A DNA stretch of 64,000 nucleotides from a virus, in the IMG/VR virus record IMGVR_UViG_3300045988_082442, positions 32,001-96,000 of that record; one strand, given 5' to 3'. Positions 3,532-34,332 of this stretch are shown here, one piece after another. A program made the translations under genes and the position numbers. The notes beneath the pieces were generated by a model. It ran no database searches, was not told the DNA's origin, and saw nothing but the letters and a program-made list of their open reading frames with translations. Numbering within the stretch: the stretch's first letter is position 1; each line of letters starts with the position of its first letter.

Positions 3532-3557
3532 TTATATTTAGATACGGAGGTTTTGTT

Positions 3558-3725: not shown

Positions 3726-3749
3726 AGTACATAATGTACTCTATTTTTA
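3722..3749. terminator. bidirectional hairpin terminator between convergent genes
   Basis: 9-bp stem ATAGAGTAC/GTACTCTAT with a 5-nt loop, followed by TTTTTAT. It sits between the + gene end at 3725 and the - gene end at 3747. Confidence 0.6.
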
Positions 3750-3986: not shown

Positions 3987-3988
3987 AA

Positions 3989-4983: not shown

Positions 4984-4984
4984 C

Positions 4985-8431: not shown

Positions 8432-9018
8432 ACCATATATACAGGTCTATCTCCAGTTTTATTATAATAATCTTCTATTATTCTGGCTATTCTTTCATAA
8501 TCTATAATTTGTGAATAAGAACTTGCACCAACTAAAATCATTTTAGGGTTATATTGATATAATTTGTTTTCTATATCTTCATAATCAATAATACCATTTT
8601 CTGTAACACCATAGGAAACTATATTATAATCTTGTCCACTAAATGACATTTTATGTCCGTGTGTTAGATGTCCTCCAGCACCTAAATCCATACCTAAAAC
8701 TGTATCTCCATTATTTAATAATGCTCTGTAAACAGCTTGATTTGCAGAAGAACCACAATGTGGCTGAACATTAGCAAATTTGCAACCAAACAATTTACAT
8801 ACATCATCTATTGCTTTTTGCTCTATCATATCTATATATTTACAACCACCATAATATCTTTTATTAGGATAACCCTCTGCATATTTATTTGTTAGAATAG
8901 AACCACAAGCTGCTTTAACCCTATCACTACAAAAGTTTTCACTTGCTATCAATTCTATATTCTTATTTTGTCTGCCTTGTTCCATTTTAATTATATCTTC
9001 ATAAGAAGCTTCTATCAT
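8432..9018 (-). CDS. glyA: serine hydroxymethyltransferase, exon 1
   Basis: Contains [33 protein letters not shown], the canonical SHMT N-terminal motifs. Has an AAGGAGG RBS. Confidence 0.88.
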
Positions 9019-13646: not shown

Positions 13647-14720
13647 ATGGAAATTGTATTTAACAGAACATTACTTATAGATGGAAGTTATATGTTACAT
13701 CGTCAACTTTCTGTCATAAATCAATGGGATTTACAAACAACAACTGGTAAAAGAACTGGTGGTGTATTTGGAGTTATAAAGAGTGTATTCAAGGAAATGC
13801 AAAAATATAACTATTTTCCAATAATGGTGTTTGATGGTGGCTTAGCTCCAAGAAGATTAGCACTATATTCAAACTATAAGAGAAATGAAGAAAAACAGTT
13901 ATTATTAGAAAGTACTAGCTATACTGAAAAGACAGAACAACAACTAATGGATGAAGCATTTATGAGAGAATACAGAACACAAAGAAAAGACATAATAGAA
14001 TTTATGCATGGTATGGGTATTCCTTGTATTAGAATAAAAGACTGGGAGGGTGATGACTTATTATATATTCTATCTAAAATGTCAAAAGACAGTATAATAA
14101 TTTCTGATGATAAAGATTTAATTCAAGCTGCATTTGAAGATGAAAATAGAAGATGTAGAATTTGGAGAACTATGCATGAGGAAATGCTTGATACTCATAT
14201 ACTGGAAAAAGAAGGTCTAAATGCTTGGAGTTATATAAATAGAAAAGCTATTTGTGGTGACCCATCTGATAATATTCCTTCTGCTTGTTATGGTGTTGGA
14301 GAAAAGACAGCATTAGACTTAATAAAACTTTATGAAAGTTGTAAATTAAATAATGTTAGTTTTCCACATGATGAAAACAGTTTAGCTGATGCTTGTATTA
14401 AAGCTGGTATTTCAAAGAGAAAGGCATATACTAATTTTGATGAAGCACAATTCATTATCAATATGGAATTGATGAATTTAAAACTTGTAGATAATGACAT
14501 TACAGAACAATTTGTTAATAAATTATATGATGAAATAATGATGGAACTAGAGATGCCAGATGAAAATATAATAAGAGATAAAATAGAAGAACTAGAAATG
14601 TTCTCATTAGATACTAAATCAATGAGAAATAAGGTTATTAAATTAAAAGATTATTTAAAAATAGAGGATAGACAAAAAGTAGAAAATCACTCAGAAGAAA
14701 CAATCACTCATTTATTTTAG
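13647..14720 (+). CDS. 5'-3' exonuclease / flap endonuclease (RNase H-like)
   Basis: Contains LLIDGSYM, VFDGG, EGDDLLY, ISDDKDL and ICGDPSDNIP..GVGEKTA (H3TH), which are the FEN/Pol I 5'-nuclease motifs. Confidence 0.88.
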   Translation: MEIVFNRTLLIDGSYMLHRQLSVINQWDLQTTTGKRTGGVFGVIKSVFKEMQKYNYFPIMVFDGGLAPRRLALYSNYKRNEEKQLLLESTSYTEKTEQQLMDEAFMREYRTQRKDIIEFMHGMGIPCIRIKDWEGDDLLYILSKMSKDSIIISDDKDLIQAAFEDENRRCRIWRTMHEEMLDTHILEKEGLNAWSYINRKAICGDPSDNIPSACYGVGEKTALDLIKLYESCKLNNVSFPHDENSLADACIKAGISKRKAYTNFDEAQFIINMELMNLKLVDNDITEQFVNKLYDEIMMELEMPDENIIRDKIEELEMFSLDTKSMRNKVIKLKDYLKIEDRQKVENHSEETITHLF

Positions 14721-14842: not shown

Positions 14843-17209
14843 ATGATTAAGTTAAAACCAAAAGACATAAATTATACAATGTCTACATATTTGAAAAAGA
14901 AATTAAAGAAAGAAACTATAAAAAATAGTGACGACTTAATGTATATATTGACTAATGATAATAAATCATATAGAGAGATTCTTAATGAAGTAGGTTCAGA
15001 TATTCCAGATGAAGAGTTTTATGAAACTGTTAATGAATTTATGGAAACAAACCCTTTTAAAAAAGAAAGAAAGGGTATTGCTGAGCTTGAAGGAGATAAT
15101 ATAAGAGTATCTTATACTGTTGATACAGATGGTATGGCTCACTGGTTAGAATTAGAAGATTTAAACACATACTTATTTAATGATGTCAATGAAGGGAAAT
15201 ACTCTGATTTAGAATTATCTAAATTAGTTATAAATGCCTTTTCAAAAGCATACCCAGTTATTCCAAATAAAGGGGTTGTTTGTTTTGACTTAAAACTTAT
15301 TGCTGATAAATCTGAGGGGAAATTGTCCTTATATGATGTAGCAAGATATTTTTATAGAGCAAGTAAATGTGGATTCTATAAAGTAGTTAAAACCAGATTA
15401 AATGTAGGTAATATACATACAATATTTATGTGCAAAATTGAACATTCTGATTATATGTATCTTGATGGAGAATCATTTGATACTTGTATTAAAGTTCCTA
15501 CCCATAAAGGAGTTGCAAGACTTCAAGATATGTTCAAAGAAGATACTGATTTATCAGAAGAAGATGTAGAATTATCAGAAATAAGATATAATGTTAGAAC
15601 ACCTCATGTTCTATATTCAAATCATTCATTACATTTAATGCCAGATGGTTCTATTGGTTATATCCTAAATAGTTTATTCATAGGAGCAAAAATCAAATAT
15701 ATAAGTAATAGAGGAGTATCATGTGATATTGTTGCTATACACTCAAACAAGAAATGGGATTGTTTCTCAAAAGTAACACATGGAAAAGAAGTTCTAAGAC
15801 AAGCCTATGATGATAAAATGTCAGAAAAGATATATAATAATCATATCATAGTATATGGATTTACATTTGGAGATGATACAACACTTTGTAGCAAGTTATT
15901 TAGTGAACAAAATGACAAGAAAAGCAGAAATATAATGAGCCTTGAAAGTGGATGGTTTATTACTCCTTCTGGAAGTAATATTAAAGGTATCTACATATAT
16001 GATAAAGATACTAAATGGCATACTATTAAGCAAGAGTGTATTGAATATACTGAAAGAAGAGGTGTCAGATTAGAAACTGAAAGAGAGAAAATAGTTAGAG
16101 AAAATAGCATAAGCAGTATTGAAAGTGTAATAGGTAAGAACACAAATATAGATGGTATGTGGTCTTCTTATGATAGCATAAAATACTCAAAAACAGTTTT
16201 AGATAGCATAGGGGGTAGTGTCCCTTTATTAACAAGTGAAGATATAGATGATATGTTAGTTACAGATGTAACTCAATTTGCTCTATATCTAACTATAATA
16301 AAACCTTATATGTCTTATATAAGTTGGAAGATAGACCTTGAAATGAAAGATTTTAAAGGTATGGTTGTTGATGAATTATGTGCTGGATATAATGGAATAT
16401 CTTATAACCCAATGATAATGGAAAATAAAGATAATTTCACAATGCACTATATAAATAGAAAAATAACAGAACTTATAGATTCTGGTATTTATTTCACAAA
16501 CCCAGAATTAGAAGATACTATTAAAAGTATCAGAAGAATAAGAAATAAAGAAGTAAAAGTTCAAGAAGTATCTTCTAAATTAGGTAAATATATAAATTTA
16601 GATGAAGTAGAAGATATATATAATACTATGAAATTGAGATATGATTATCTACTTGAACAAATATCTGAATTTAAACACATCAATGATTTAAACGGTAGAT
16701 ACAGAATGAAATTAGCTAGATTTTATCATAAATATAATAAAGCAACAGGTAAGAGATTACCAATACAAAATTTTAAAATAAATGTAATAGATTTAACAAG
16801 TGATATAATAAATGATAATAAAGAATATATTAAAAGAACAAATAATAAAGAAGCAAAAACAAAATTAAAAGAACTAAATAAATCATTAAGAAAACACTCA
16901 ATGACATTAAGAAAGAACATATTAAAAGAAACAATATTTGCAGATTATAAAACAAATAAAAAAGATATAAAATTAAATGAGATAAATAATGAAGTAAAAA
17001 CAAGATTACAAGATATAGTAACAGATGAATATTTAATAAATAATGGATACGATATGAGTAGAATAATTAAATTACAAGGGTATGTTGCTGATATTGAAAA
17101 CAGAATGTATGAGATAGAAGATGGGGATATATACTCTAATTCTCTTGGAAATCTAAATAATACTTTTGTTAGAGTAGATTGGCAACGAAGATTTGGGTTT
17201 ATTATGTAA
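14843..17209 (+). CDS. large hypothetical protein with a Lys-rich coiled-coil-like C-terminus
   Basis: 788-aa ORF with a weak RBS. No motif recognised. Confidence 0.7.
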   Translation: MIKLKPKDINYTMSTYLKKKLKKETIKNSDDLMYILTNDNKSYREILNEVGSDIPDEEFYETVNEFMETNPFKKERKGIAELEGDNIRVSYTVDTDGMAHWLELEDLNTYLFNDVNEGKYSDLELSKLVINAFSKAYPVIPNKGVVCFDLKLIADKSEGKLSLYDVARYFYRASKCGFYKVVKTRLNVGNIHTIFMCKIEHSDYMYLDGESFDTCIKVPTHKGVARLQDMFKEDTDLSEEDVELSEIRYNVRTPHVLYSNHSLHLMPDGSIGYILNSLFIGAKIKYISNRGVSCDIVAIHSNKKWDCFSKVTHGKEVLRQAYDDKMSEKIYNNHIIVYGFTFGDDTTLCSKLFSEQNDKKSRNIMSLESGWFITPSGSNIKGIYIYDKDTKWHTIKQECIEYTERRGVRLETEREKIVRENSISSIESVIGKNTNIDGMWSSYDSIKYSKTVLDSIGGSVPLLTSEDIDDMLVTDVTQFALYLTIIKPYMSYISWKIDLEMKDFKGMVVDELCAGYNGISYNPMIMENKDNFTMHYINRKITELIDSGIYFTNPELEDTIKSIRRIRNKEVKVQEVSSKLGKYINLDEVEDIYNTMKLRYDYLLEQISEFKHINDLNGRYRMKLARFYHKYNKATGKRLPIQNFKINVIDLTSDIINDNKEYIKRTNNKEAKTKLKELNKSLRKHSMTLRKNILKETIFADYKTNKKDIKLNEINNEVKTRLQDIVTDEYLINNGYDMSRIIKLQGYVADIENRMYEIEDGDIYSNSLGNLNNTFVRVDWQRRFGFIM

Positions 17210-21161: not shown

Positions 21162-21503
21162 ATGAGAATACATTTTAGCAAAGATTTAAAACATTGGTAT
21201 AAATTTATATTACCAAAAGATTTAAGACTTGTAGAACCCAAAATAAAGTGGTTATTTTGGGATATAGAATTTACACCAACAGAACAAAGAGATTACATAC
21301 ATGATAAGACAGGGCAATCAACTTTTGTATATTGTCCAAATTGTAATAATGAATTAGTTAATAGTAATAGTTTTGTGAAGGACACAGACTATGTTTATTA
21401 TAAATGTGATAAATGTGGAACAGATAGTAAATGGGATTTTGATTTTATATGTCCTATTTTAGTTGAATTTAGAAAGGAAGAGTATATTGAAAATAAAGAA
21501 TGA
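21162..21503 (+). CDS. zinc-ribbon protein
   Basis: Contains CPNCNNE..CDKCG and has a GGTGAG RBS. Confidence 0.6.
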   Translation: MRIHFSKDLKHWYKFILPKDLRLVEPKIKWLFWDIEFTPTEQRDYIHDKTGQSTFVYCPNCNNELVNSNSFVKDTDYVYYKCDKCGTDSKWDFDFICPILVEFRKEEYIENKE

Positions 21504-21753
21504 TATTGATTTACAAAAGTTAAGGAATTTTGGGTTTGAGTATGAGCCAGCAACTGGTGGATATTATAAAGTATATTTTCCAAAGTTTTTAAAATTCATA
21601 CCAATGGCAAGAAGTAATAAAGTAAGAGGTTTAGCCATTTATGATGATAGAAATATAATAATAAAGAAAAAATATGGATTTATGTGGATACCAGCATTTG
21701 AAGATGAGTTTGCAATACAAGATTTAATAGATGCTGGATATGTTGAAGCATAA
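21463..21753 (+). CDS. hypothetical protein (start uncertain: TTG at 21463 or 21487)
   Basis: There is no in-frame ATG near the 5' end. The TTG at 21487 follows GGAAG. Confidence 0.5.
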   Translation: MNLERKSILKIKNDIDLQKLRNFGFEYEPATGGYYKVYFPKFLKFIPMARSNKVRGLAIYDDRNIIIKKKYGFMWIPAFEDEFAIQDLIDAGYVEA

Positions 21754-21767
21754 GAGGGGGTTTATAA

Positions 21768-22865
21768 ATGAAATTATTTTTATATTCAGATGTACATATA
21801 AGTAGAACAAGTAGTATTCTACCAACAGTTAGTGAAAATGAAAAATATACATACAGACAGAATATGATTATAAAAACAGCAGAATGGATGTCAGAGATTA
21901 TAAAACAAGAAAATGCTGATATGATAATAAATTTAGGAGATACTTTTGACCAAAACACAATTACAAGTTATGATGTAGAAACAGCAAGTGAGTTTTTTAA
22001 GAGATTTCCTTCTGGTATTCGTCATCTTGTATTATGTGGAAATCATGAAATGTTAAATAGTAAAGATAATGTATTAAAGCTTCTAAACAATATAGAATGT
22101 ATCTCAGTAATAGATACAGTAACATCAATAGATAACTTATTATTGGTACCATATTGTGATTATAAGGATTTAGACCTTACATCTTACAATGAAGCTGACT
22201 ATTTGTTTTTACATCATGATGTTTATGGGAGTCAAATTGCACCAGGCAGAGTTTTAGATTTTGGTATTGAACAAAATAGTTTATCTAAATTTAAAAGAGT
22301 ATTTAATGGGCATGTTCATGCATCAAGTAAATTTGGTAATATTGTAAATGTTGGTAGCATAACAACTCATTCATTTGCAGATAGTCCTATTTCATATCCT
22401 ACTTGCTATATATTTGATACAGTTACAGGTGAACTAAAAGAGTTTTATAATAGAAATTGTCCTTTATTTAGAAAGATAAAGGCAGATACAATTCAGGAAT
22501 TACAAAATTATTTAGCAGTAAATTTGGAACAAGGTTGGAACTATATATTACATATTGACTGTTCTTTTGAAATAAAGAGTTCAGTAGAAGATATTATTAA
22601 GAATAGACCAAATGTTCTTAACTATAAGATTACTACAAAATCTATTAAACAAGATGGAGTTCCCGAATTAGAAAATACTAAAATAGAAAGCAACCTTGAT
22701 GTTAAGAAGTCATTCAAGGATTTCCTAAATACTGGTATTGAATTAAGATACCCAATGAATTTATATAATGAAGTAATTGGGGAAATAAAAGATAAAGAAG
22801 AAAATGTTAAAACAGACGATAAGATTGAAATATTGTCAAGCAATAAAGCAAATTCATTATTTTAG
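21768..22865 (+). CDS. sbcD: Mre11/SbcD-like nuclease
   Basis: Carries the calcineurin-like phosphoesterase motifs YSDVH, GDTFD, GNHE, HH and GHVH. Confidence 0.85.
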   Translation: MKLFLYSDVHISRTSSILPTVSENEKYTYRQNMIIKTAEWMSEIIKQENADMIINLGDTFDQNTITSYDVETASEFFKRFPSGIRHLVLCGNHEMLNSKDNVLKLLNNIECISVIDTVTSIDNLLLVPYCDYKDLDLTSYNEADYLFLHHDVYGSQIAPGRVLDFGIEQNSLSKFKRVFNGHVHASSKFGNIVNVGSITTHSFADSPISYPTCYIFDTVTGELKEFYNRNCPLFRKIKADTIQELQNYLAVNLEQGWNYILHIDCSFEIKSSVEDIIKNRPNVLNYKITTKSIKQDGVPELENTKIESNLDVKKSFKDFLNTGIELRYPMNLYNEVIGEIKDKEENVKTDDKIEILSSNKANSLF

Positions 22866-22889
22866 ATATGAAAGAGAGGTTATAGAATA

Positions 22890-23060
22890 ATGAAGCATAA
22901 CTTTGAATTTAATATTGATTTCTGGGATAGTAAAACAGAATCAGACTTTTACAGATATAGGGATATATTAGTAAATCTTTCTGATATGGATACTATTCAA
23001 GCAACTCACTTTTTAGAAAATGTATATAGTTCAGTTGCAAGAGATTATGGAGATGAATAG
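22890..23060 (+). CDS. small hypothetical protein, 56 aa
   Basis: Hand-read ORF with an AGAGAGG RBS. Confidence 0.5.
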   Translation: MKHNFEFNIDFWDSKTESDFYRYRDILVNLSDMDTIQATHFLENVYSSVARDYGDE

Positions 23061-23070
23061 TTTTATCATT

Positions 23071-23084
23071 AAAGATGTTATAAT
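23071..23084 (+). promoter_or_regulatory. extended -10 promoter cassette (AAAGATGTTATAAT)
   Basis: Exact copy of the consensus, 20 nt upstream of the ATG at 23105. Confidence 0.6.
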
Positions 23085-23104
23085 TTATAGAGAGGTGTAA
23101 GAAG

Positions 23105-25786
23105 ATGAACTTAATACAAAATATTTTTCAAAACCCCAATTTTAAAGTTGAGGGTGACCATCATAAATTAAAGAAAAGAATATTGAAAGATATAATCAAC
23201 ATGAACTGGTTTAACGATTGTGATTTACTTATAGGATATTCAGATGGTCAAAGAGTATATACTAATCCAAAGCAATGGCAATTAGATGCAGCAAATAGTT
23301 TATTTGAGTTTTATTGGAATTATACAGTTGATAGATATACTAATTATGACGCACTAGAGGATGAAATTTATAACCACATGAAGAACTCAAAATATGTAGG
23401 GGTACAAACAACAGTATTACCAAAATTTACAATACCATTTAGAGCAGATAGTGGACAATGCATGATAGATGAAAATGGAAATCAAACATTTAGAGATGGA
23501 ACACCAACTAGACCATTTTATTCTTTAATCTATATTGCACAAAATGGATTTATTGATTTTGATGATAAGATTAGATTAAAAGACTGGGATTCAGTTATAA
23601 GAAGTAACCCTAAATATTTAAGATACTTTGAAACTTGTTTAGACCATTTTGCAGATGGTGAAAATAGTGTCAAGAAACAAATAAGAGATTTAGTTAAAAC
23701 ATATAAAGATTTTAGAGATTATTTGGACCCTAATCTTCCAATAGTAGAAGATAGAAAATGGTTGTATGATTTCTGTGTTGAAGTAGATGTAAAGTGTGAC
23801 CCTTATAAAAATTATGAAACAGAATTATTACATAAAAATGGTTTTATAGTTATGGGTGGTAATGAATATATTTATTATAATGATATACCATGTGTAAACT
23901 GTGGAAAACCACATTATAGAAATGGTTTATGTAAAGACTGTTGTGAAATGAATTTTAGAGATAGAATGATAGGTAATAAACTATATGGAAAAGCAAGTCA
24001 AAGAAGTAACTCAATGCATCTAAACGAAATAAAGTTAGCAGGTGCAGCTGCAAGTGCAAGTTCAAGTAGTTATAGAGTTAGTGGGGATACATCAAGACAA
24101 GCACACAGTATGGATGATGAGAGTATTATATCAGCAAGTACAAGTGCAATATCTAGCAGAGCAAGTAGAGCTGCAGGAGAACCAGCAACAGTAGGTATAA
24201 ATACATCTGGAAATTCAGCAGTTATAGTAGATGATGATATTGGTAACGCAGCAAGTTCAAATAGGTCAAGTTTTGTAAGTAGAGCTGCAGGTGTAAATCT
24301 ATCAAGTAGTATTACAGGTGTATCAACAGCAGTTTCAGAAGAAAGAATGTCAGACGCAAGTCATACAGCAGTAAAAAGTAACCCAAGTAGAGCTTCAGGT
24401 ATAACAGTTAGCCAGAATACAACTGGAATATCAACAGCAGTTTCAGAAGAAAGAATGTCAGACGCAAGTCATACAGCAGTTGCAAGTAAAGTAAGTAGAA
24501 TGCCAGGACAAAATATGGGAAATGTTACACAGGTAGGTACAACAACATCTGCTAGTAGTACATCTGTATCAGATGATGGTATTGGGGCAGCAGCAAATAC
24601 CAGTGTTTCAAGTGGAAGCAGTCAGTCAAGGGGACAAAATATTGGTATGCAAAAACCAAGTGCAACATCAAGTGTAATTGATGAGGAAACTTTACAATTT
24701 GCAAGTTATGATAGTAGAGTTGCAGCATTTACACATACTTCTGGTGCCTCAGATGTAACATCAAATGAAGAAGTACAAAGAGCAGGATTGGAATCAAGAA
24801 CAGCAGGTTTTCAAACAGCAGTTAGAGCTGTAAATATAGGAAACAGTGAATTTGCAAATTCTAGAACAAGAGTTGGTGTTAGCGTTGGAACTACAACATC
24901 AGAGCAATCATTTGCAAGGAATAAAGATACAGTTGATGAGACTGGAAAAGCAAGTAGGAGTAGTATTATAACATCCCCATCAGCAACAAATATAAATGAT
25001 GTTAATTTTATAGGAAATATAAAAGACTTTGTTTATACATCTCCTAATACAGTTAGATACTATTCATCTCAAGGTAAGATATTCGATATGACCATACCAA
25101 AAGGTTATAGATACCCAGATAATATATCAACAAATAGATTCTTTATGTTTGGTAGTTTTAATGGTAATCTTGAATTATTAAAACAATTCTGTCCACAAAA
25201 TGCTTTCGTATTTGACCCATTTGCAGGTCATGGAGATAGAGCATTATTCTTTATGGAATATGGTTGTAAAGCATATATAGGAAATGATACTAACGTAAAA
25301 GAATGGACATTTTTAAATGATAATCTAATCAAGTTAATAAACAAATACAAGAGATTTAACCAAAAATGTGAGGTTAGAATAAAGAACTCAATGATATATG
25401 AACCAGAATTAGAGAATAAAGTAGACTTTGTTTACACATCCCCACCATATTTTGATTTTGAAATGTATGATGGATTTACTGAACAGATAGCAGGAATGAA
25501 AACATACGATGACTTCCACAGAGAGTTTTCAGTACCTATATTCAAAAATGTATATAGATATATGAAAGATGGTGGTGTAGTTATTCTACAAACAGAAAAA
25601 GATGCAAAATTAAAACAAAAGTGGATAGATATGATGGTTAGTGTTGGTTTTAAAAACATTACAGAACATGATTTAAGTAATGAACAAAAACATGGAATAA
25701 ATAAAACTATTCAAGAGATAGGTATATTTGTTAAAGGTGACTATAACAGGGGAGAGGTAAAACAAACAACTAACACATTATTTTAG
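23105..25786 (+). CDS. three-part protein: conserved N-domain with Zn-ribbon, Ser/Ala-rich linker, C-terminal SAM-dependent methyltransferase domain
   Basis: VFDPFAGHGDRAL (motif I, FxGxG-like) is followed about 75 aa later by FVYTSPPYFDF (motif IV, SPPY). CVNCG..CKDCC sits in the N-domain. It is a paralogue of the next gene. Confidence 0.8.
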   Translation: MNLIQNIFQNPNFKVEGDHHKLKKRILKDIINMNWFNDCDLLIGYSDGQRVYTNPKQWQLDAANSLFEFYWNYTVDRYTNYDALEDEIYNHMKNSKYVGVQTTVLPKFTIPFRADSGQCMIDENGNQTFRDGTPTRPFYSLIYIAQNGFIDFDDKIRLKDWDSVIRSNPKYLRYFETCLDHFADGENSVKKQIRDLVKTYKDFRDYLDPNLPIVEDRKWLYDFCVEVDVKCDPYKNYETELLHKNGFIVMGGNEYIYYNDIPCVNCGKPHYRNGLCKDCCEMNFRDRMIGNKLYGKASQRSNSMHLNEIKLAGAAASASSSSYRVSGDTSRQAHSMDDESIISASTSAISSRASRAAGEPATVGINTSGNSAVIVDDDIGNAASSNRSSFVSRAAGVNLSSSITGVSTAVSEERMSDASHTAVKSNPSRASGITVSQNTTGISTAVSEERMSDASHTAVASKVSRMPGQNMGNVTQVGTTTSASSTSVSDDGIGAAANTSVSSGSSQSRGQNIGMQKPSATSSVIDEETLQFASYDSRVAAFTHTSGASDVTSNEEVQRAGLESRTAGFQTAVRAVNIGNSEFANSRTRVGVSVGTTTSEQSFARNKDTVDETGKASRSSIITSPSATNINDVNFIGNIKDFVYTSPNTVRYYSSQGKIFDMTIPKGYRYPDNISTNRFFMFGSFNGNLELLKQFCPQNAFVFDPFAGHGDRALFFMEYGCKAYIGNDTNVKEWTFLNDNLIKLINKYKRFNQKCEVRIKNSMIYEPELENKVDFVYTSPPYFDFEMYDGFTEQIAGMKTYDDFHREFSVPIFKNVYRYMKDGGVVILQTEKDAKLKQKWIDMMVSVGFKNITEHDLSNEQKHGINKTIQEIGIFVKGDYNRGEVKQTTNTLF
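24321..24480 (+). repeat. in-frame 108-nt-period duplication containing a perfect 52-nt repeat
   Basis: TATCAACAGCAGTTTCAGAAGAAAGAATGTCAGACGCAAGTCATACAGCAGT occurs at 24321-24372 and again at 24429-24480. It encodes STAVSEERMSDASHTAV twice. Confidence 0.9.
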
Positions 25787-25800
25787 AAAGAGGTTTTATA

Positions 25801-27714
25801 ATGAATCTAGTACAAAATATTTTTCAAAACCCTAACTTTGAGATAAAAGGAGATAGGGATAAATTAAAACAGAAAATAGCAAAAGATGTCATAAATATGT
25901 ACTGGTGGAATGACTGTGGTATCCTTAAAGGATATGACAGCTCATTCCGAGTATATGCCAACCCAGAGATATGGCAGTTAGATGCAGCAAATGACCTTTA
26001 TGAATACTATTGGAATAAACAACAGGATAGCGTTACACTGGACAAATTAGAGGATAGTATTTATAGATATATGAGAAGTAATACTGAATTTGATACAAAT
26101 AATGGTTATTTATCTACTTTTAATATGAAATATAGAATGGACCCACAGCAATTTATGTATGATAAAGAAGGAAATCAAACATTTAGAGATGGTACACATA
26201 ACAGAGCATTCTATTCATTAGTCTATTTAGGTCAAAATGGATTTATAGATAGAGATGGGTATTTAAAAATATGTGATTTTGATACAGCAATTTTAGGAAC
26301 TAAATATGAGAAATTCTTTAAACTTTCTAAACATAGAATAAAAAGTGAGAAGAGCATGGTATCAGAGGAAATAAATAAGTTAAAAGATGGCTATATGAAA
26401 TTTGATAAATATTTAGACCCAAATTTACCAGTATTAGAAGATAGAAAATGGTTATATGATTTCTTTATGTATGTTGAGTTAAAATGTGACCCATTTAAGA
26501 ATTATGAAGTTGAATTACTTGAAAAGAATGGTTCTATTGTAGGCTCTGGAAATGAAGATATTTATGTTGAAATAGATGGTAAGAAGTGTGCTAATTGTGG
26601 GGTTAATGAACCATATATAAATGGACTTTGTAAAGACTGTCAGGATGTAAAAATAAATCATAGTTCTAGAGCAACAAGAGCTTCTGGTGCAAGTATAGCA
26701 GTAAGAAGTATAGATGCAAATATACAAGACGCATCAGTTATGGTAAATACAACTAGCCACACATATCAACCAAGAGGTGAAAGAGTAGATGCAAAAGAAA
26801 GAGTAGATAGAATATCAAGTACTAGCACATCTTGTATTGCAAATACAGACATAGTAACATCAGCAGCATTTTCTACAAAAGCTTCAGCAACATATAGACC
26901 AAGAGGAATTAGGGTAACTAATAATCAATATATTGGTGGTATTAAATATTTCAAATACAATGAAGATGGTACAGTGCATTATGATTTCCCAAGTGGTAAG
27001 ATACAAATGGATATGTCAGTACCAGAAGGTTATACATATCCAAAACAGATAGCTATTGATAGATTTGCTATTTATGGTAGCTTCAAAGGTAACCCAGAGT
27101 TATTAAGACAGTTTTGCCCACAAAATGCCTTTGTATTTGACCCGTTTGCAGGTCATGGGGATAGAGCTTTGATGTTTGCTAAATGGGGTGTAAAGACCTA
27201 TATAGGAAATGATACTAATTCAAGAGAATGGAGTTGCTTGAATAACACACTTATGCCTTTATTAAATAAATACAAAAAGTTTGGACAATATTTTGAAGTA
27301 AGAATTAAAGACTCTAAAATATATGAACCAGAACTAGAAAATAAAGTAGATTTTGTTTATACATCTCCACCTTACTTTGATTTTGAGGTATATGATGGAT
27401 TTGCTGAACAAATAGAGGGTATGAAGGATTATGATGATTTTCATAAGTATTTCTCAACACCTATATTTACAAATGTATATAGATACATGAAAGACGGAGG
27501 CATAGTAATATTACAGACTGAAAGAATAAATAAATATAAGAATAAATGGATAAAGATGATGGAAAATGTTGGCTTTAAATGTTTAGACAGTAATGTATTA
27601 AATACAAAGAATGCAATGGCAAAAAGAGTTAATATGCTTCAAGAAGTTGCAATATTTGTAAAAGGAAATTATAAAACAGATGATGTAAAAGTACAACAGA
27701 ACACATTATTTTAA
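25801..27714 (+). CDS. paralogue of 23105-25786: same N-domain, shorter linker, same methyltransferase domain
   Basis: The N-terminus MNLVQNIFQNPNF.. and the C-terminal domain (FDPFAGHGDRAL, FVYTSPPYFDF, VYRYMKDGG) are collinear with the preceding protein. Confidence 0.8.
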   Translation: MNLVQNIFQNPNFEIKGDRDKLKQKIAKDVINMYWWNDCGILKGYDSSFRVYANPEIWQLDAANDLYEYYWNKQQDSVTLDKLEDSIYRYMRSNTEFDTNNGYLSTFNMKYRMDPQQFMYDKEGNQTFRDGTHNRAFYSLVYLGQNGFIDRDGYLKICDFDTAILGTKYEKFFKLSKHRIKSEKSMVSEEINKLKDGYMKFDKYLDPNLPVLEDRKWLYDFFMYVELKCDPFKNYEVELLEKNGSIVGSGNEDIYVEIDGKKCANCGVNEPYINGLCKDCQDVKINHSSRATRASGASIAVRSIDANIQDASVMVNTTSHTYQPRGERVDAKERVDRISSTSTSCIANTDIVTSAAFSTKASATYRPRGIRVTNNQYIGGIKYFKYNEDGTVHYDFPSGKIQMDMSVPEGYTYPKQIAIDRFAIYGSFKGNPELLRQFCPQNAFVFDPFAGHGDRALMFAKWGVKTYIGNDTNSREWSCLNNTLMPLLNKYKKFGQYFEVRIKDSKIYEPELENKVDFVYTSPPYFDFEVYDGFAEQIEGMKDYDDFHKYFSTPIFTNVYRYMKDGGIVILQTERINKYKNKWIKMMENVGFKCLDSNVLNTKNAMAKRVNMLQEVAIFVKGNYKTDDVKVQQNTLF

Positions 27715-27729
27715 GAGGTAGGTTTTCAA

Positions 27730-29682
27730 ATGAATTTATTATTTAAAAAGATATATATTCAAGGTTTTCAATCAGTAGATACTATTGAACTTGAATTAGA
27801 CGATAGAGGAATTTTAGTTGTAAAAGGTATAAATAATTATGAAAGTAATGTCAAAAGTAATGGTAGTGGTAAATCTAGTATATTTGAATCAATTATATTT
27901 GCATTATATGGAGAAACAAGTTTAGGTATAAAAGACCCAGAAAATAGAGTTTTGAATAATGGATATACTGTAAAATTAGATTTAAGTATAGATGGTGTAG
28001 ATTATACAATAAACAGATATAAAACTAATAATAAGTCTAATGTTCAGTTTATTCAAAATAATAATGATATATCAGGAAGAAATAAAACTGATACTGATAA
28101 GATTATTCAAAGAGAATTAGGAATAAGTAAAGAATTATTTTTAGACAGTATCTTTTTAGCACAGGGGGTTAGTACAAATTTAAGTTCACTATCTCCTACT
28201 GCTAGAAAGGAAAGATTAGAGATTTTAACTGGTACTGAGAAGCTTATAGAGGAATTTAAAGCATATATAAAAGAAAGACAACTTGAATATGAATCTAAAT
28301 GCACAGAATTGACATTAGCAAAGACAAAATTAGATGGTAATATACAATCATTAAACGGTCAAATAAGTACCTTAAAATCTAAAATAATAGAAATAAATAA
28401 TGAGAATGAAAGAAATAAGTCATTAGGTAATATAGATGATTTAAACTATCAAATACAACAGATAGAGAATGAAATATCAGTAATAGAAGTACAGACAATT
28501 CCAAACATAGAACATACTATAGAACAAAATCAAACCATAATAGATACATATAAAAATCAAAAGTTGGAAATGGAATCTAAAAAGGAAGAGATAAATAATA
28601 CTTTAAATCAACAAAGGGATGTTGTATATAACATAAATTCAGGAATTGATAAGTTGAATAATGACATAAATACATCAAGAAGAGAGATTTCCAGAATACA
28701 AAGTGATATTGAGACAATAAGAAATTCTGACACATGCCCAACTTGTGGTAGAAAATATGATAATATAAATGAAGACCATATAAATATGCTAATCGAAGGC
28801 TATAATAAAGACATTTCAGAGCATGATAATAAAATATCAGAGTTAAATGCAGTAATAGTAACTGAAACAGATAAATTAAATATGGAAACAACAAAAGGAA
28901 AAGCAATAAGAGAAGAATATGATTCAATACAAAATGATATACAGAAAATAAACAATGATATTCAGGTTAAAGAGGCAGAAAATCAAGGCAAGTCAAGAGA
29001 AATAAAAGAGCAAAGAGATATAATATCAAACAAACAATATCAAATAAAGGGATTACAGGCTAAGAAAGAGGAACTATTAAAGATAGAAATAAAGAGTACA
29101 ACAGAATATGAAGATATGATAAAAGATGCTGAAGATAAGATAAACAAAAGCAGTCTTGAAATCAGAGATATACAAGAAGAATGGGCTAAACAAAATGATT
29201 TGGTAGATGTGTGTAAATACTCACAACAACTTATAACCAAACCATTTAGAACATATTTATTACAAAATAGCATAAATCTTTTAAATGAGAAATTACATCA
29301 TTTAAGCACTAAATTATTTAGCAATGATAAAGATGTTATATATATTGATGGAGATGACTCAAAACTTGACATAAGACTAGGTAATGCAACATACGAAAGC
29401 TTATCTGGTGGTGAAAAGACAAGAGTTAATATGTGTTTACTTTTGGCACAGAAATACTTAGCATCAAATTTAGGAAATATAGATTGTAATATCATAGTTC
29501 TTGATGAGGTATTAGGACAATGTGATAGCGAAGCTGAAATAAATATTATAGACTTGATTATTGAAGAACTACAAAGCGTTTCAAGTATCATATTTATAGG
29601 ACATAAAGAGTTATCTATTCCAAATGATGAAATTATTACAGTTGTTAAAGATGAACACGGTCTATCAAGATTATTAAGATAA
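27730..29682 (+). CDS. sbcC: Rad50/SbcC-like SMC ATPase
   Basis: Contains NGSGKSSIFESI (Walker A), a long coiled coil with a CPTCG zinc hook, LSGGEKTR (signature) and IIVLDEV (Walker B). Confidence 0.85.
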   Translation: MNLLFKKIYIQGFQSVDTIELELDDRGILVVKGINNYESNVKSNGSGKSSIFESIIFALYGETSLGIKDPENRVLNNGYTVKLDLSIDGVDYTINRYKTNNKSNVQFIQNNNDISGRNKTDTDKIIQRELGISKELFLDSIFLAQGVSTNLSSLSPTARKERLEILTGTEKLIEEFKAYIKERQLEYESKCTELTLAKTKLDGNIQSLNGQISTLKSKIIEINNENERNKSLGNIDDLNYQIQQIENEISVIEVQTIPNIEHTIEQNQTIIDTYKNQKLEMESKKEEINNTLNQQRDVVYNINSGIDKLNNDINTSRREISRIQSDIETIRNSDTCPTCGRKYDNINEDHINMLIEGYNKDISEHDNKISELNAVIVTETDKLNMETTKGKAIREEYDSIQNDIQKINNDIQVKEAENQGKSREIKEQRDIISNKQYQIKGLQAKKEELLKIEIKSTTEYEDMIKDAEDKINKSSLEIRDIQEEWAKQNDLVDVCKYSQQLITKPFRTYLLQNSINLLNEKLHHLSTKLFSNDKDVIYIDGDDSKLDIRLGNATYESLSGGEKTRVNMCLLLAQKYLASNLGNIDCNIIVLDEVLGQCDSEAEINIIDLIIEELQSVSSIIFIGHKELSIPNDEIITVVKDEHGLSRLLR

Positions 29683-29694
29683 GGAGAATTTAAA

Positions 29695-30162
29695 ATGGAA
29701 AATGAGATTAAGTTTGAATTTACTGGTATTTTAAAAACAGATTCTGAAGGTGGACCTTTTAGATGTTTACCAGAAAGAAGTACAAAGGCATCAGCTGGTT
29801 ATGATTTCTATAACCCAGAAGAAGTTACAATTCCAGCACATAGCTTAAAGTTGATTAAAACAGGTATAAAAGCAAAATTTCCTAATAACATGACACTAAA
29901 ACTTTATAATAGAAGTTCAAACCCAAAAAAGAAAGGTGTTATGTTAGCTAATAGTGTTGGTATTGTGGACGCTGATTATTATGGAAACCCTGATAATGAT
30001 GGAGAGATTGGTTTTATGTTTTATAACTTTACAGATACTGATACAACATTTGCAAGAGGCGATAAACTAGGTCAAGGTATATTTGAAGCATATTATACAG
30101 TTACAGATGAGAATGAAATTACATCTGAAAGAACAGGTGGATTTGGAAGCACTGGAGCATAA
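29695..30162 (+). CDS. dut: dUTP diphosphatase
   Basis: Contains AGYDF, GIVDADYYG and RTGGFGSTG, the dUTPase motifs. Confidence 0.88.
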   Translation: MENEIKFEFTGILKTDSEGGPFRCLPERSTKASAGYDFYNPEEVTIPAHSLKLIKTGIKAKFPNNMTLKLYNRSSNPKKKGVMLANSVGIVDADYYGNPDNDGEIGFMFYNFTDTDTTFARGDKLGQGIFEAYYTVTDENEITSERTGGFGSTGA

Positions 30163-30163
30163 T

Positions 30164-30349
30164 ATGGTTTATGAAATAATAACCAGTGATTTTAGAAATA
30201 AATGTGGCAATTGTAAATTCTTTCAGACTGAAAATCACATAGATGGTAAGTGCATAAATTTAGAGAATAAACTAAGACCATGGAATAGAACAAGGGCTTA
30301 CAATAGTAAGTCCTGTGTTCATAAGGAGGTAATCAATGAAGAAATCTGA
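30164..30349 (+). CDS. small Cys-rich protein
   Basis: I chose the ATG at 30164, just after the dut stop. Contains CGNCKFF..GKC. Confidence 0.5.
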   Translation: MVYEIITSDFRNKCGNCKFFQTENHIDGKCINLENKLRPWNRTRAYNSKSCVHKEVINEEI

Positions 30350-30686
30350 TTTAGAATGTGCTATAAATGATTTAGAAGATTTAAGAGCTATAGCTGCAAA
30401 ACAGGACTATAACACCTCTATAGAAATAAATCAAAAACTTATAAAAGTTTTACCTTTATTGCAGACAGAATTATCTAAAATGGATAGAAACAACTTTGAT
30501 GTTACAAGTCCAATATATTTGGAAATAACACAAAGAGATTGTGAGGATACACATCAGTCAATGCAAGAATATATAAACAATAGTTTAGAGAATTTGTCTG
30601 ACAATGAAATAGATATAATAGACTTTGGAATACATTATATTGATGATAAAACAAAGGTAGGTTATATAAAATATAATAGGAGGTGA
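30336..30686 (+). CDS. hypothetical protein
   Basis: ORF with an AAGGAGG RBS. Confidence 0.6.
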   Translation: MKKSDLECAINDLEDLRAIAAKQDYNTSIEINQKLIKVLPLLQTELSKMDRNNFDVTSPIYLEITQRDCEDTHQSMQEYINNSLENLSDNEIDIIDFGIHYIDDKTKVGYIKYNRR

Positions 30687-30690
30687 TTAT

Positions 30691-30981
30691 ATGATAGCTA
30701 TGATAAGTCAACCAATGAAAAATAAATCTGTTGATGAAATAAATAAAGAAAGAGAAGATTTAGCAAAAGTATTAGAAGAACAAGGATATGATGTATTAGA
30801 TACAGTTTTAAGTGAATCTGATGTCAAAGAAGATGACCCACTTTATTATTTAGCAAAATCAATAGAATTTTTAGCAGAAGCAGATATTATAGTATTCATG
30901 AAAGGTTGGGAAGAAGCAAGAGGATGCAGAATAGAACATCAAATTGCAAAAGAATACAATAAAGAAATAATGGAATTATAG
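30691..30981 (+). CDS. DUF4406-like (nucleoside 2-deoxyribosyltransferase-like fold) protein
   Basis: The pattern ..ADIIVFMKGWEEARGCRIEHQIA resembles DUF4406. This is from memory, so confidence is low. Confidence 0.45.
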   Translation: MIAMISQPMKNKSVDEINKEREDLAKVLEEQGYDVLDTVLSESDVKEDDPLYYLAKSIEFLAEADIIVFMKGWEEARGCRIEHQIAKEYNKEIMEL

Positions 30982-30992
30982 GAGGACTTGTT

Positions 30993-31346
30993 ATGCAATA
31001 TTACCTAAAAGTGTATAACTTAAACAAGGGTATTCTTGTAGGTTATTATAAGTCAACAGGGTTGAGTTGCATTTCAAAACTACCAAAGGGAATTAAATAT
31101 TTCAATAATAAAGATGAGGCTATATTATTAGCTTTGGATATGAATTATAACGGTTTCATGAGGGATTCTGATGGCAAATACTATACACCGTTATGGGTAG
31201 TATGTGGTGACCATACAAGAGAACCTAAAAAGAATACATTTAAAAATCAATTTGAAGATGAGGATGGTGAGTTTGAATATGGTTTTAAAGCCTATTTACG
31301 ACAAAATCGTATTGAAAGTAAAGGATTACCAGGAGGTGACATCTGA
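30993..31346 (+). CDS. hypothetical protein
   Basis: ORF with a TAGGAGG RBS. Confidence 0.6.
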   Translation: MQYYLKVYNLNKGILVGYYKSTGLSCISKLPKGIKYFNNKDEAILLALDMNYNGFMRDSDGKYYTPLWVVCGDHTREPKKNTFKNQFEDEDGEFEYGFKAYLRQNRIESKGLPGGDI

Positions 31347-31584
31347 GACTGGACTAGAGTGGCATAAAGACATGAGTCAAAGTGCTAACTCAACATTAGT
31401 TGCAGAGGTAGTTGCTGTAGGTAACGGAAGATTATTACAAGATGGTACTACATTGCCATTAAGAGTAAATGTAGGAGATATGGTAGTTATATCAAAACAT
31501 CAAGGTGAAAGTTTTAATGATGGGAAACAAGATTATATAATTGTTTCAGAAAGTCATATTTTATCAATCATAGAGGAGGATTAA
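31279..31584 (+). CDS. groES: GroES-like co-chaperonin
   Basis: MVLKPIYDKIVLKV..VAEVVAVGNG..GDMVVISK matches the Cpn10 pattern. I chose the start by homology; 31264 is possible too. It overlaps the upstream gene. Confidence 0.7.
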   Translation: MVLKPIYDKIVLKVKDYQEVTSETGLEWHKDMSQSANSTLVAEVVAVGNGRLLQDGTTLPLRVNVGDMVVISKHQGESFNDGKQDYIIVSESHILSIIEED

Positions 31585-31586
31585 AA

Positions 31587-31862
31587 ATGCAAGGTGTAAA
31601 TGGAATAGAAATTACAGATGTAAAATTAAAGAAAGTAAACGGTGCTGATAAAATGATAGGGGACGTATCAATAACATTAAATAATTGTTTAGTAATACAT
31701 AATATTAAAATAATAAAAATAGATGAAAGAAGAATAATAGCATTCCCTAGTAGAAAAGTTGCTGATGGTTCTTTTAAAGATATTACACACCCTATAAATA
31801 GAGAATTAAGAAATTATGTTGAAAAAGTAATTTTGGATTTATATGATAAGGATGAAGATTAA
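31587..31862 (+). CDS. spoVG: SpoVG-family protein
   Basis: IEITDVKLKKV..GDVSITLNNCLVIHNIKII..AFPSRK..GSFKDITHPIN is collinear with bacterial SpoVG. Confidence 0.85.
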   Translation: MQGVNGIEITDVKLKKVNGADKMIGDVSITLNNCLVIHNIKIIKIDERRIIAFPSRKVADGSFKDITHPINRELRNYVEKVILDLYDKDED

Positions 31863-32080
31863 TGAAATTGATAGATGGTGATAATACCTACAATGTTTTA
31901 ACTTTAAATTTAGATGAGGGAGATGTATTGGTAGTTGATTTTAAGGATAATCAGCCAAATGCAGAATCCCTATCTAAATATAGGGAATATTTGAAAGATA
32001 TATTTCCTAATAATAGAATATTATTTATATCAAATGGTATAGAGTTAGGAATCATAAAGGGAGGTAGTAATATTGAGTAA
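31862..32080 (+). CDS. hypothetical protein
   Basis: ORF lying between spoVG and groEL. Confidence 0.55.
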   Translation: MKLIDGDNTYNVLTLNLDEGDVLVVDFKDNQPNAESLSKYREYLKDIFPNNRILFISNGIELGIIKGGSNIE

Positions 32081-33707
32081 AAATATAAAATATGGAGAAG
32101 AAGCACAAAGTTCTGTTGTAGATGGTATAAATGCTGTTGCAGATATTGTTAAAACTACAATAGGACCAAAAGGCAGAAATGTTCTAATCAGAGAGAAAGG
32201 AACTACACCAGTAATAACTAACGATGGTGTTACAATAGCAAAATCAATACAATTAAAAGATAATACAGAAGACGCAGGTGCATCTTTAATAATATCAGCT
32301 GCACAAAAAACAAATGATATAGCAGGAGATGGAACAACTACAACTACTTTATTGTCATCTGAAATTATAAATAGAGGATTTGAAGCTATTGATAAATATA
32401 ACTTAAATCCAGTGCAACTACAAAAAGGTTTAATATCTTTATCTAATAAAATTAGTGATATGTTATTAGATAATGCTATTGAAGTGAAAGATGATGATAG
32501 CATAAAAAGAGTTGCTTCAATATCAAGTGGTAGTGATGTTACAGGTGAGCTAATTGCTAATGCTTTCAAAGATGCAGGTACTTATGGAACAGTAATAGTA
32601 GAGGATAGTAAAACAGGAGTAACTGGATTATCAACTGTTATGGGTATGAAATTACCAAATGGTTCAGTATCGCCTTATCTATTAGAAAGAAGTACATTAT
32701 CATCAGAAATAGATGATGTGAGTGTTTTAGTTATGAAAGATAAAATAGATAATGTACCAGATTTAATACCAGTATTAGATTCTTGTAATAGGGAAGGAAG
32801 AAGGCTTTTAATTATATGTGATGATATTGAATTTGAACCATTAAACTTTGTTGTTATGAATAAAGCAAGGGGAGCAATAAATGTAAATATAATTAGATTA
32901 CCAGGATTAAATAATGATTTAAGAAATGCTGTAACAGATGATATTTGCATTGCTACTGGAGCAACATTAGTTAGTAGAGAATCTGGTAGACCATTAAAAG
33001 CATTTACATCAGAATGGTTCGGTGAATTAGAAAGTGCAAAAATAGAATTAGAAGAAACAGTATTAAAATTTAAAGATATAAGTTCTACTGGTGAGAATTT
33101 ATTAGCAGATAGAGAAAATAGAGTAGCTGAATTAGAAACACAAAAAGAAACATTAGGTGTTGGAAAAGATACTACACATTATGATAAGAGAATAGCAAAT
33201 TTAGTTGGTGGAATTTCTGTGATTGAAGTTGGTGGAAATTCAGAAATAGAAATAAAGGATACTAAATTGAGAATTGAAGATGCTTTAAATTCTGTTAAAG
33301 CTGCTATTGAAGAAGGAATTGTAGCAGGTGGTGGTTATAGTTTCCTTGAAATTGTAAAACAATTAGGAAATACTAATATGACAGCAGATGATGCTATTGT
33401 TGCAGATATTCTTACAGAATCATTAAAATCAGTTACTAGACAGATAGCTGAAAATGCTGGAATGAATGGTGATGAAGTAGTTAAGACTTGTATTGAAAAA
33501 GGTAAGGGCTTAAATGCAATGACTGGAGAATATACAAATTTAATAGAATCTGGTGTTATAAATGCTGTAAAAGTAGATAGATATTGTGTACTAAATGCTG
33601 TAAGTGTTGCTGGTACAGTTCTAACAATGGGTGGGGCAATTATAGAGGAGAATGAAAAAGACCAAAATCTTCTACAACTTATAAACCCAGGAGTACCAGT
33701 AATATAA
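32073..33707 (+). CDS. groEL: GroEL-like chaperonin (Cpn60)
   Basis: The TTG start has a GGGAGG RBS. Contains MSKNIKYGEEA, TIGPKGRNV, AGDGTTTTT and VAGGG. The 544-aa size is typical. Confidence 0.92.
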   Translation: MSKNIKYGEEAQSSVVDGINAVADIVKTTIGPKGRNVLIREKGTTPVITNDGVTIAKSIQLKDNTEDAGASLIISAAQKTNDIAGDGTTTTTLLSSEIINRGFEAIDKYNLNPVQLQKGLISLSNKISDMLLDNAIEVKDDDSIKRVASISSGSDVTGELIANAFKDAGTYGTVIVEDSKTGVTGLSTVMGMKLPNGSVSPYLLERSTLSSEIDDVSVLVMKDKIDNVPDLIPVLDSCNREGRRLLIICDDIEFEPLNFVVMNKARGAINVNIIRLPGLNNDLRNAVTDDICIATGATLVSRESGRPLKAFTSEWFGELESAKIELEETVLKFKDISSTGENLLADRENRVAELETQKETLGVGKDTTHYDKRIANLVGGISVIEVGGNSEIEIKDTKLRIEDALNSVKAAIEEGIVAGGGYSFLEIVKQLGNTNMTADDAIVADILTESLKSVTRQIAENAGMNGDEVVKTCIEKGKGLNAMTGEYTNLIESGVINAVKVDRYCVLNAVSVAGTVLTMGGAIIEENEKDQNLLQLINPGVPVI

Positions 33708-33912: not shown

Positions 33913-34332
33913 GTGAAACAGAGTAGTTTTGAGAAAAGGTTGAATAAAGTTTTAAAAGAAGAGGAACACTATGTTTTAAATATATTATTACTTTCATACC
34001 TTACGGATGACGAAAGCTATAAAGACATAGCCGAGTTATGTTTTATGTTTGATGAGTATTCTAACTTTAAAAAGTTTATAAAATATTATGGTGGTAAAAC
34101 ATTGAAGATACCAACACAGGAAGAATTAAGACTAGCATTAAAACATTTACTATTATTTCAATATGTTAAAATAGATGGCATGAGTTTAGATGATGGATAT
34201 AAAAGTGTTAATTTGAAAGATTTAGGTGTTAGTAAGGAAGAGGCATCAAATACAATAGATAGATTTTATAATTATTTAAAAGAAAATGGCAATGAAATAT
34301 TTAGAGGTAGAAAAAGAAATAAACTATTTTAG
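33913..34332 (+). CDS. hypothetical protein (C-terminus ..RKRNKLF)
   Basis: GTG start with an AGGTGA RBS. Confidence 0.55.
   Translation: MKQSSFEKRLNKVLKEEEHYVLNILLLSYLTDDESYKDIAELCFMFDEYSNFKKFIKYYGGKTLKIPTQEELRLALKHLLLFQYVKIDGMSLDDGYKSVNLKDLGVSKEEASNTIDRFYNYLKENGNEIFRGRKRNKLF

Follow-up and report, generated by a model that had tools for sequence, protein, structure and literature searches.

Two tandem putative DNA methyltransferases with a new N-terminal domain at the sbcD-sbcC locus of an uncultured phage

Introduction

What are two paralogous methyltransferase (MTase)-domain proteins, each preceded by a large domain of unfamiliar sequence, doing side by side between the sbcD-like and sbcC-like genes of an uncultured phage? 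The locus lies in a stretch of 64,000 nucleotides (positions 32,001 to 96,000 of the IMG/VR virus record IMGVR_UViG_3300045988_082442), referred to here as the window; coordinates are positions in the window, not in the whole virus record. The window has a G+C content of 25-34% and almost all of its genes are on the same strand. An original prediction, made from the letters alone, read the two genes as a duplicated pair of DNA amino-methyltransferases and tentatively as part of a replication-coupled modification system. Judged by sequence, and with moderate confidence, we propose that the pair encodes orphan DNA amino-methyltransferases of a ~220-kb phage of a low-GC Firmicute host; the DNA that they modify is most likely that of the phage itself, and the target probably cytosine N4. 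A coupling of this methylation to replication is plausible, yet more tentative.

Results

The two open reading frames (ORFs), hereafter the long and the short paralogue (Table 1), are situated where they had been predicted, 14 bp apart, each with its own ribosome-binding site (RBS) and ATG. BLASTP comparison of the long to the short paralogue bore out their proposed relationship: identity reaches 41% over the N-terminal ~280 amino acids (aa; E 7e-95) and 50% over the C-terminal ~350 aa (E 2e-113), which puts the paralogy far above chance. The two blocks are collinear and the region between them aligns weakly. When the six-frame ORFs of the whole window were searched with hidden Markov models (HMMs), no third copy of either the N-domain or the C-domain turned up. 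In related contigs the orthologues of the long paralogue measure 935-1048 aa, and those of the short paralogue are 77-86% identical to it. Megablast found no nucleotide match to the locus among 50,697 GenBank phages, and a scan of 21500-30300 for promoters and terminators returned promoters not enriched over shuffles and no terminator.

The C-domain contains a complete, unpermuted group-1 catalytic core related to PF01555, with motifs I and IV intact in both copies. As had been noted, motif I (FDPFAGHGD, aa 703-711 of the long and 446-454 of the short paralogue) is followed 75 aa later by motif IV (TSPPYF, aa 778-783 and 521-526). The proposed assignment to the DNA N6/N4 amino-methyltransferases is supported by PF01555 matches that exceed the gathering threshold of 26.7 bits in both proteins and that cover profile positions 1-108/119 of 221, from motif IV onward; further backing comes from the profile alignments and viral folds described below. 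PF01555 is precomputed on every relative, and among the PADLOC models those of Type II MTases and one mad2 model match. A profile search with the C-domain recovered 220 relatives, mainly stand-alone (~325 aa) and ParB-fused (~450 aa) proteins with PF01555. Comparison of the C-domain to the ParB-fused MTases by hhalign (99.3% probability, E 2.4e-20, 187 columns) showed the same I-to-IV order. Both paralogues, like the stand-alone and ParB-fused relatives, carry TSPPYF and FxGxG without variation; a Pfam search detected no PF02195 (ParB) in the two proteins.

Beta-class MTases carry motif IV before motif I and a central target-recognition domain, whereas here motif I precedes motif IV. The beta-class structure PDB 2zie aligned to the C-domain profile as two pieces in swapped order (around motifs IV-V and X-I), hence the C-domain is circularly permuted relative to the beta class, i.e. 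it has the unpermuted Rossmann order X-I-II-III-IV...VIII. Unpermuted group-1 N6A/N4C MTases have been found in phage ParB loci (PMC4738411), and jumbo phages hold both permuted and unpermuted forms (PMC7824862). The best matches of the C-domain among predicted viral structures (BFVD) are phage DNA methylases or modification methylases together with several giant-virus cytosine-N4 MTases, the cytosine-N4 labels being annotations, not assays. A Ser that opens the strand-4 motif is the hallmark of N4C MTases (PMC4738411). Since TSPPYF, with Ser at that position, is invariant, the target base of the pair is probably N4-cytosine. The intact catalytic motifs of both copies suggest two active enzymes, either with two specificities or forming a heterodimer, rather than an active/inactive pair. 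That the pair are DNA MTases we regard as very probable. The catalytic core closes directly behind its last strand, without any obvious insert for target recognition.

The N-domain, which the original prediction had failed to recognise, has no relative in Pfam, NCBIfam, PHROGs or PDB sequences according to profile searches. Searched exhaustively with HMMER, 1.84 billion representatives yielded its family in 13 clusters, and all full-length members (P0024, P0026, P0027, P0028 and P0033) consist of the N-domain, a low-complexity linker and a TSPPYF methyltransferase. The N-domain is a new, phage-restricted family. At ~25-30% identity F13, D29, G44, Y45, R50, L66, E68, R112, Q117, R135, D150, D152 and D230 are conserved; D29, G44, Y45, R50, E68, R112, Q117, R135, D150, D152 and D230 are invariant. 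By hhalign the domain is unrelated to the ParB-MTases (probability 0.1%) and shows no relation to the ~130-aa N-terminal region of the stand-alone MTases. A PD-(D/E)xK nuclease reading, suggested by the conserved acidic residues, was dropped on inspection of the alignment, where no conserved (D/E)xK follows the DxD. We propose that the N-domain has a recognition or recruitment role, chiefly because it is found only fused to an MTase core that is devoid of a recognition insert. The Cys4 ribbon described at its end is present (aa 263-279 in the long and 263-280 in the short paralogue) and invariant in the close clade; its two CxxC knuckles, 10 (long) or 11 (short) residues apart, constitute a predicted zinc ribbon. 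The ribbon of the short paralogue matches Pfam Zn_ribbon_LapB weakly (E 0.02-0.05, below the cut-off). The ribbon as such is confined to the ~220-kb clade and missing from distant homologues.

The Ser/Ala-rich linker is variable, as had been claimed: it comprises ~355 aa (S 20%, A 12%, T 9%) in the long and ~100 aa in the short paralogue. Tandem Repeats Finder (TRF) located in the long linker a 108-bp tandem duplication (24277-24522; 1.9 copies, 79-85% matches), which doubles the peptide ...TG[VI]STAVSEERMSDASHTAV..., and 11 of the 20 Arg residues of this linker are preceded by Ser (4.2 expected), Arg standing mostly within S-R-[AVTM]-[ASP]-G. The linkers of distant homologues are near-perfect (Ala-Ser-x)n runs, whose coding DNA is a minisatellite with the 9-bp unit GCAAGCNNN in 17-25 tandem copies; compared to these the linker of the window is degenerate. 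We treat the linker as a disordered tether of variable length, which may also function as a short linear motif.

Both MTases end in NTLF, in agreement with the original prediction. The tail is borne by a 12-15-aa extension that is absent from distant homologues. Five of the 81 predicted genes of the window (0.27 expected from composition) end in LF, namely those of a FEN-type 5'-3' exonuclease, SbcD, both MTases and a 139-aa protein, with x-N/S-x-L-F as their common C-terminal pattern. Orthologues in the relatives L001 and L002 keep the tail as SVLF, SNLF, NTLF, NKLF or NRLF, that of SbcD being SVLF or SNLF. The Asn and Thr codons of the tail vary synonymously among orthologues, which favours selection on the tail peptide. 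A Gln stands near the tail in some members only (QQNTLF, QQNKLF), and in a low-confidence model the extension is disordered (predicted local distance difference test, pLDDT, <50 at residues 264-271). Pyrococcus Mre11 has a C-terminal clamp-interaction motif (PMC6009593). Elsewhere in the window, an SSB-like protein (44224-44895, + strand, phrog_14578) ends in ...RRTTEMF, a hydrophobic tip resembling bacterial SSB tails.

A candidate partner of the tail is encoded in the window (Table 1). The beta-clamp-like processivity factor matches the beta sliding clamp PDB 8dt6 (E 2.9e-4) in its N-terminal part only, and at its N-terminus reaches ~110 aa beyond the profile. The clamp-loader genes are of the bacterial DnaX/delta' type, and SSB, primase, a DnaB-like helicase and a RecA-like protein are also encoded. 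The S-adenosylmethionine (SAM) synthetase MetK of the phage likely supplies the cofactor to both MTases, and its presence fits a high SAM demand.

Synteny around the pair was compared among relatives. A word-indexed protein search recovered only 23 proteins, all close relatives from contigs of up to 224 kb, which form two groups, short (631-682 aa, 77-86% identical) and long (893-1048 aa); one of them is labelled "DNA methyltransferase [uncultured Clostridium sp.]" by NCBI. L001 (a 222-kb contig of a metagenome-assembled genome, MAG), L002, L003, L014 (one of these three a 220-kb contig) and the partial L004 all show the gene order SbcD, long, short, SbcC, which implies that the duplication is older than the radiation of the ~220-kb clade. 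The flanking sbcD-like and sbcC-like genes were confirmed in the window, with the qualification that a 56-aa ORF (22890-23060), not conserved in the relatives, also occupies the gap between SbcD and the long paralogue. This gap (22866-23104 in the window, 6231-7141 in L001, 5804-6679 in L002) accommodates an HNH_3 endonuclease and an 82-aa ORF in L001 and a NUMOD4-type protein in L002. Such variable content suggests that insertions are tolerated in the sbcD-sbcC interval, which is then no evidence of a functional unit. The meaning originally read into the insertion is not supported: homing endonucleases enter the gap in relatives, and distant homologues of the pair are located elsewhere. A functional link to SbcCD was rejected, adjacency being kept only in the ~220-kb clade and the gene having other locations in other lineages; its place between sbcD and sbcC is lineage-specific and probably incidental.

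The family is present on 12 viral contigs of IMG/VR and, among 185,579 species genomes, on two MAG contigs only. In 50,697 GenBank phages no N-domain was found, and tblastn with the window protein and two distant homologues matched the C-domain only. The distant homologues are single-copy genes on viral contigs of 20-49 kb with 30-57% G+C. Such scattered positions (Table 1), enriched for DNA metabolism, are what orphan phage methylases typically show; they favour DNA as the substrate and count against SbcCD being an obligatory partner. In L010 the surroundings of the fusion gene recall the ParB-MTase fusions as well as the nearby SbcC of the window. In the homologue P0027 the ~345-aa insertion within motif I starts with Cys, ends in ...GN followed by Cys, and has a weak LAGLIDADG_3 match; from its sequence it looks like an intein. 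Inteins are documented in phage N6_N4 methylases (PMC5050341).

Table 1 Location of the paralogues, their domains, related genes of the window and distant homologues
Feature	Location	Strand	Basis or remark
Long paralogue, 893 aa	23105-25786	+	N-domain, Zn ribbon, ~355-aa linker, MTase, NTLF tail; PF01555 34.4 bits
N-domain, long (aa 1-262)	23105-23890	+	Profile search, invariant residues
Zn ribbon CxxC-x10-CxxC, long	23891-23941	+	C263/C266, C276/C279
Linker, long	23960-25009	+	Ser/Ala/Thr-rich; tandem duplication; recurrent S-R-[AVTM]-[ASP]-G
Amino-MTase domain, long	25010-25771	+	Motif I 25211-25237; motif IV TSPPYF 25436-25453
NTLF tail, long	25772-25786	+	N[TK]LF in all orthologues though preceding residues vary
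Short paralogue, 637 aa	25801-27714	+	Same architecture, ~100-aa linker; PF01555 43.0 bits
N-domain, short (aa 1-262)	25801-26586	+	Profile search, invariant residues
Zn ribbon CxxC-x11-CxxC, short	26587-26640	+	C263/C266, C277/C280
Linker, short	26641-26931	+	~100 aa
Amino-MTase domain, short	26932-27699	+	Motif I 27136-27162; motif IV 27361-27378
NTLF tail, short	27700-27714	+	Shared with other DNA-metabolism proteins
Other LF tails	14709-14720 (exonuclease), 22854-22865 (SbcD), 34321-34332 (139-aa protein)		
FEN-type 5'-3' exonuclease	13647-14720	+	PF02739, PF01367; ends ...THLF
SbcD/Mre11-like nuclease	21768-22865	+	phrog_100 E 1.6e-34; Pfam Metallophos; ends ...ANSLF
SbcC/Rad50-like ATPase	27730-29682	+	phrog_77 E 1.6e-72
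Beta-clamp-like processivity factor, 481 aa	47527-48972	+	phrog_947 E 3.8e-16; candidate tail partner
Three clamp-loader subunit genes	52078-53088, 53064-53891, 53888-54880	+	DNA_pol3_delta2, DNAX lid, clamp-loader PHROGs
SAM synthetase (MetK)	55125-56294	+	Pfam S-AdoMet_synt N, M, C; PDB 7r3b E 1.8e-84
Coding minisatellite linkers	L012 10783-11018; L009 10748-10902		(Ala-Ser-x)n
P0027	L006 3715-6345		~345-aa insertion exactly within motif I: FDPF / C...GN / CGHGTT
Fusion gene, L007			After DHH phosphoesterase, exonucleases, primase/helicase and DNA polymerase (directly after the last two)
Fusion gene, L009 and L013			After another DNA MTase
Fusion gene and its context, L010 (~20 kb, 52% G+C)	3364-5388 and 8244-8936		Directly after stand-alone ParB-like gene; SbcC-like 3.5 kb upstream
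Fusion gene, L011			After tail genes
Fusion gene, L012			Between regulators and RecT

Several other features of the window are recorded here in their own right. Its family-A DNA polymerase is split between two ORFs on the + strand (44913-46235 and 46545-47489, ~310 bp apart), the first encoding the exonuclease and the start of the polymerase domain, the second the remaining polymerase domain; an intron, a split gene or a frameshift may account for this arrangement. Past SbcC (29695-33707, + strand) a dUTPase (by correspondence with L001), a GroES-like protein, a SpoVG-like protein and a 544-aa GroEL-type chaperonin are encoded, as in L001. Three large + strand ORFs have no PHROG match (9650-12340, 896 aa; 14843-17209, 788 aa; 61699-63861, 720 aa), the first of them having no Pfam match either.

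Discussion

We propose that methylation by the pair would shield the phage DNA from host restriction, the N-domain (together with the zinc ribbon in the ~220-kb clade) supplying DNA or partner recognition from the end of a disordered Ser/Ala-rich linker. The C-terminal extension ending in N-x-L-F would dock the MTases on the phage sliding clamp, nascent DNA would be methylated at the fork, and the same tail would recruit the 5'-3' exonuclease and SbcD to the clamp. The replication-coupled modification put forward in the original prediction thereby gains circumstantial backing from the phage's own clamp-like factor, loader and SAM synthetase and from the xLF tail on the exonuclease and SbcD; the coupling itself is still something that we infer. 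In its fullest form the proposal combines a minimal N4C/N6A core, a hitherto unseen ~260-aa recognition domain on a minisatellite-encoded tether, N-x-L-F clamp docking and MetK-fed, fork-coupled self-methylation; the resident homing endonucleases would then also dock on the beta-type clamp of the phage, and the system would be an analogue of Dnmt1-PCNA. As a whole, this combination is speculative and somewhat doubtful.

A number of observations weigh against the proposal. The AlphaFold models of both domains are poor: the N-domain model reached a pLDDT of 48.7 (from a 10-sequence alignment) and had no match below E 0.9 in a Foldseek search of the PDB, and the C-domain model is mediocre (pLDDT 57, predicted template modelling score, pTM, 0.61), its best PDB fold matches (TM about 0.4) being RNA and small-molecule MTases. 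No DNA-binding signature was detected in the N-domain, which is acidic in the ~220-kb clade (pI 5-6) and basic elsewhere; net charge, varying between clades, was dropped as a DNA-binding cue. Neither the Gln nor the Leu conserved in the bacterial QL[SD]LF motif is present in the tail, which is missing from the family-A polymerase pieces of the window and occurs on the HNH_3 and NUMOD4 homing endonucleases that occupy the SbcD-long gap of L001 and L002. Its DNA is very uniform as well, TTA TTT TAG ending 13 of 15 tails, which leaves room for a role at the RNA or DNA level.

The features of the tail could also be explained if xLF-COOH were not a clamp motif at all but a translational-coupling or RNA element (UUAUUUUAG stands beside the next RBS), a degron or a localisation tag, in which case the MTases would be untethered. 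The uniform TTA TTT TAG, which often abuts the GAGG of the next gene, would suit this explanation, as would the low share of TAG among the stops of the window (28%), the missing canonical Gln and the presence of the tail on mobile homing endonucleases. It is countered by the synonymous changes of the N and T codons and by the identity of the bearers, nearly all of which are DNA-metabolism proteins of a phage that encodes a clamp-like factor and a loader. TTATTTTAG, considered as a general intergenic element, was rejected: it occurs four times on the + strand, three of these at the ends of LF-tail genes. We consider a non-clamp tail rather unlikely, albeit less so than any of the alternatives below.

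Recognition or recruitment by the N-domain, which we prefer, has to be weighed against the N-domain being a second enzyme of a bifunctional DNA modification system, in which, for instance, a group is added or processed and then methylated, or of a hypermodification step. In favour of a second enzyme are the charged and polar invariants (D29, R50, E68, R112, Q117, R135, D150-x-D152 and D230, at about 25% identity), which may also be structural, the exclusive fusion to this MTase and a glycosyltransferase gene near the L012 homologue. The N-domain nevertheless resembles no enzyme family in Pfam, PDB, PHROGs or NCBIfam, and no nucleotide-metabolism genes of the hypermodification type were seen adjoining the pair, so that we find a second enzyme unlikely.

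Methylation of DNA by the C-domains, in turn, competes with their acting on RNA (rRNA, tRNA or mRNA) or on a protein amide. Unpermuted (D/N/S)PPY MTases include RsmD, Trm11, TrmN6 and HemK; the top PDB fold matches are MnmM, Trm11, Bud23 and an rRNA m4,2C synthase; Cons_hypoth95 matches weakly, below threshold; and one source names a relative TrmN6. The fold matches come from a low-confidence model and are generic for Rossmann class I MTases, and were therefore dropped as a discriminator of the substrate. PF01555 above threshold, viral DNA methylases as the best viral matches, and homologues that are ParB-fused or adjoin DNA MTases and replication genes speak for DNA instead, and render an RNA or protein substrate distinctly improbable. 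Very unlikely, finally, is that the pair are virion-packaged anti-restriction MTases co-injected in the manner of P1 DarB, with the N-domain targeting the capsid or portal and the linker serving as flexible tether, or that they methylate during packaging: the long disordered linker and obligate N-terminal module would fit, the L011, L013 and L012 homologues adjoin tail, lysis or terminase genes, and ParB-terminase-linked MTases have been proposed to act at packaging (PMC4738411), but the genes lie in the early/replication block of the window and relatives with no structural genes adjacent, and the tail is common to replication and repair enzymes.

If the proposed clamp docking is true, a phage would link the methylation of its DNA to its replisome by means of a tail that binds the clamp, which to our knowledge is not known for any phage or bacterial methyltransferase. 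The common tail indicates which proteins of this uncultured lineage could be tested as clamp clients. The N-domain, an orphan tied exclusively to one MTase clade, is a candidate for a new DNA-recognition or recruitment module. Together with the phage MetK the pair predicts heavily methylated virion DNA, which would matter for the sequencing, cloning and host-range barriers of gut Firmicute phages. Should the proposal be false, the pair would be two further orphan anti-restriction methylases. Orphan phage DNA methyltransferases as such are known; the N-domain family is new.

Comparison of the pair to known systems places it closest to the unpermuted group-1 phage MTases (M.MboIIA/M.MunI-related, DpnA-like; ParB-fused, PF01555 with or without PF02195), which have the same core and motif order and are likewise orphan and phage-borne. 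The ParB domain of the ParB-fused MTases is absent from the pair, where a ~260-aa N-domain, a long low-complexity linker and a tandem duplication are found instead, to which the ~220-kb clade adds the zinc ribbon and the xLF tail. The closest catalytic domains of cultured phages (35-38% identical) are those of the stand-alone MTases (~325 aa, phrog_12517) of Twort-like Staphylococcus and Mammaliicoccus phages, whose ~130-aa N-terminal region is unrelated and which have neither linker nor tail. The beta-class enzymes M.PvuII, M.RsrI and TTHA0409 (PDB 2zie) are alike at motifs IV-V and X-I, with Ser-Pro-Pro-Tyr as in N4-cytosine enzymes; relative to them the pair is circularly permuted and without a central target-recognition domain. 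Like the pair, phage P1 DarB is a large multi-domain MTase that has accessory parts at its N-terminus and is presumed to counter restriction; the pair has no helicase domain and no sequence similarity to it was found. With the clamp clients (Dnmt1-PCNA, FEN1-PCNA, Pyrococcus Mre11-PCNA and the bearers of QL[SD]LF) the pair shares a short hydrophobic C-terminal motif on a predicted flexible extension; in this phage, which has genes for a clamp-like factor and loader subunits, the motif is borne by the MTases, by an exonuclease of the flap type and by an Mre11-type nuclease. The motif is N-x-L-F, not QL[SD]LF or a PIP box, and marks its bearers as candidate clamp clients. We know of no bacterial or phage DNA methyltransferase shown to bind a clamp, in a literature that was not searched exhaustively.

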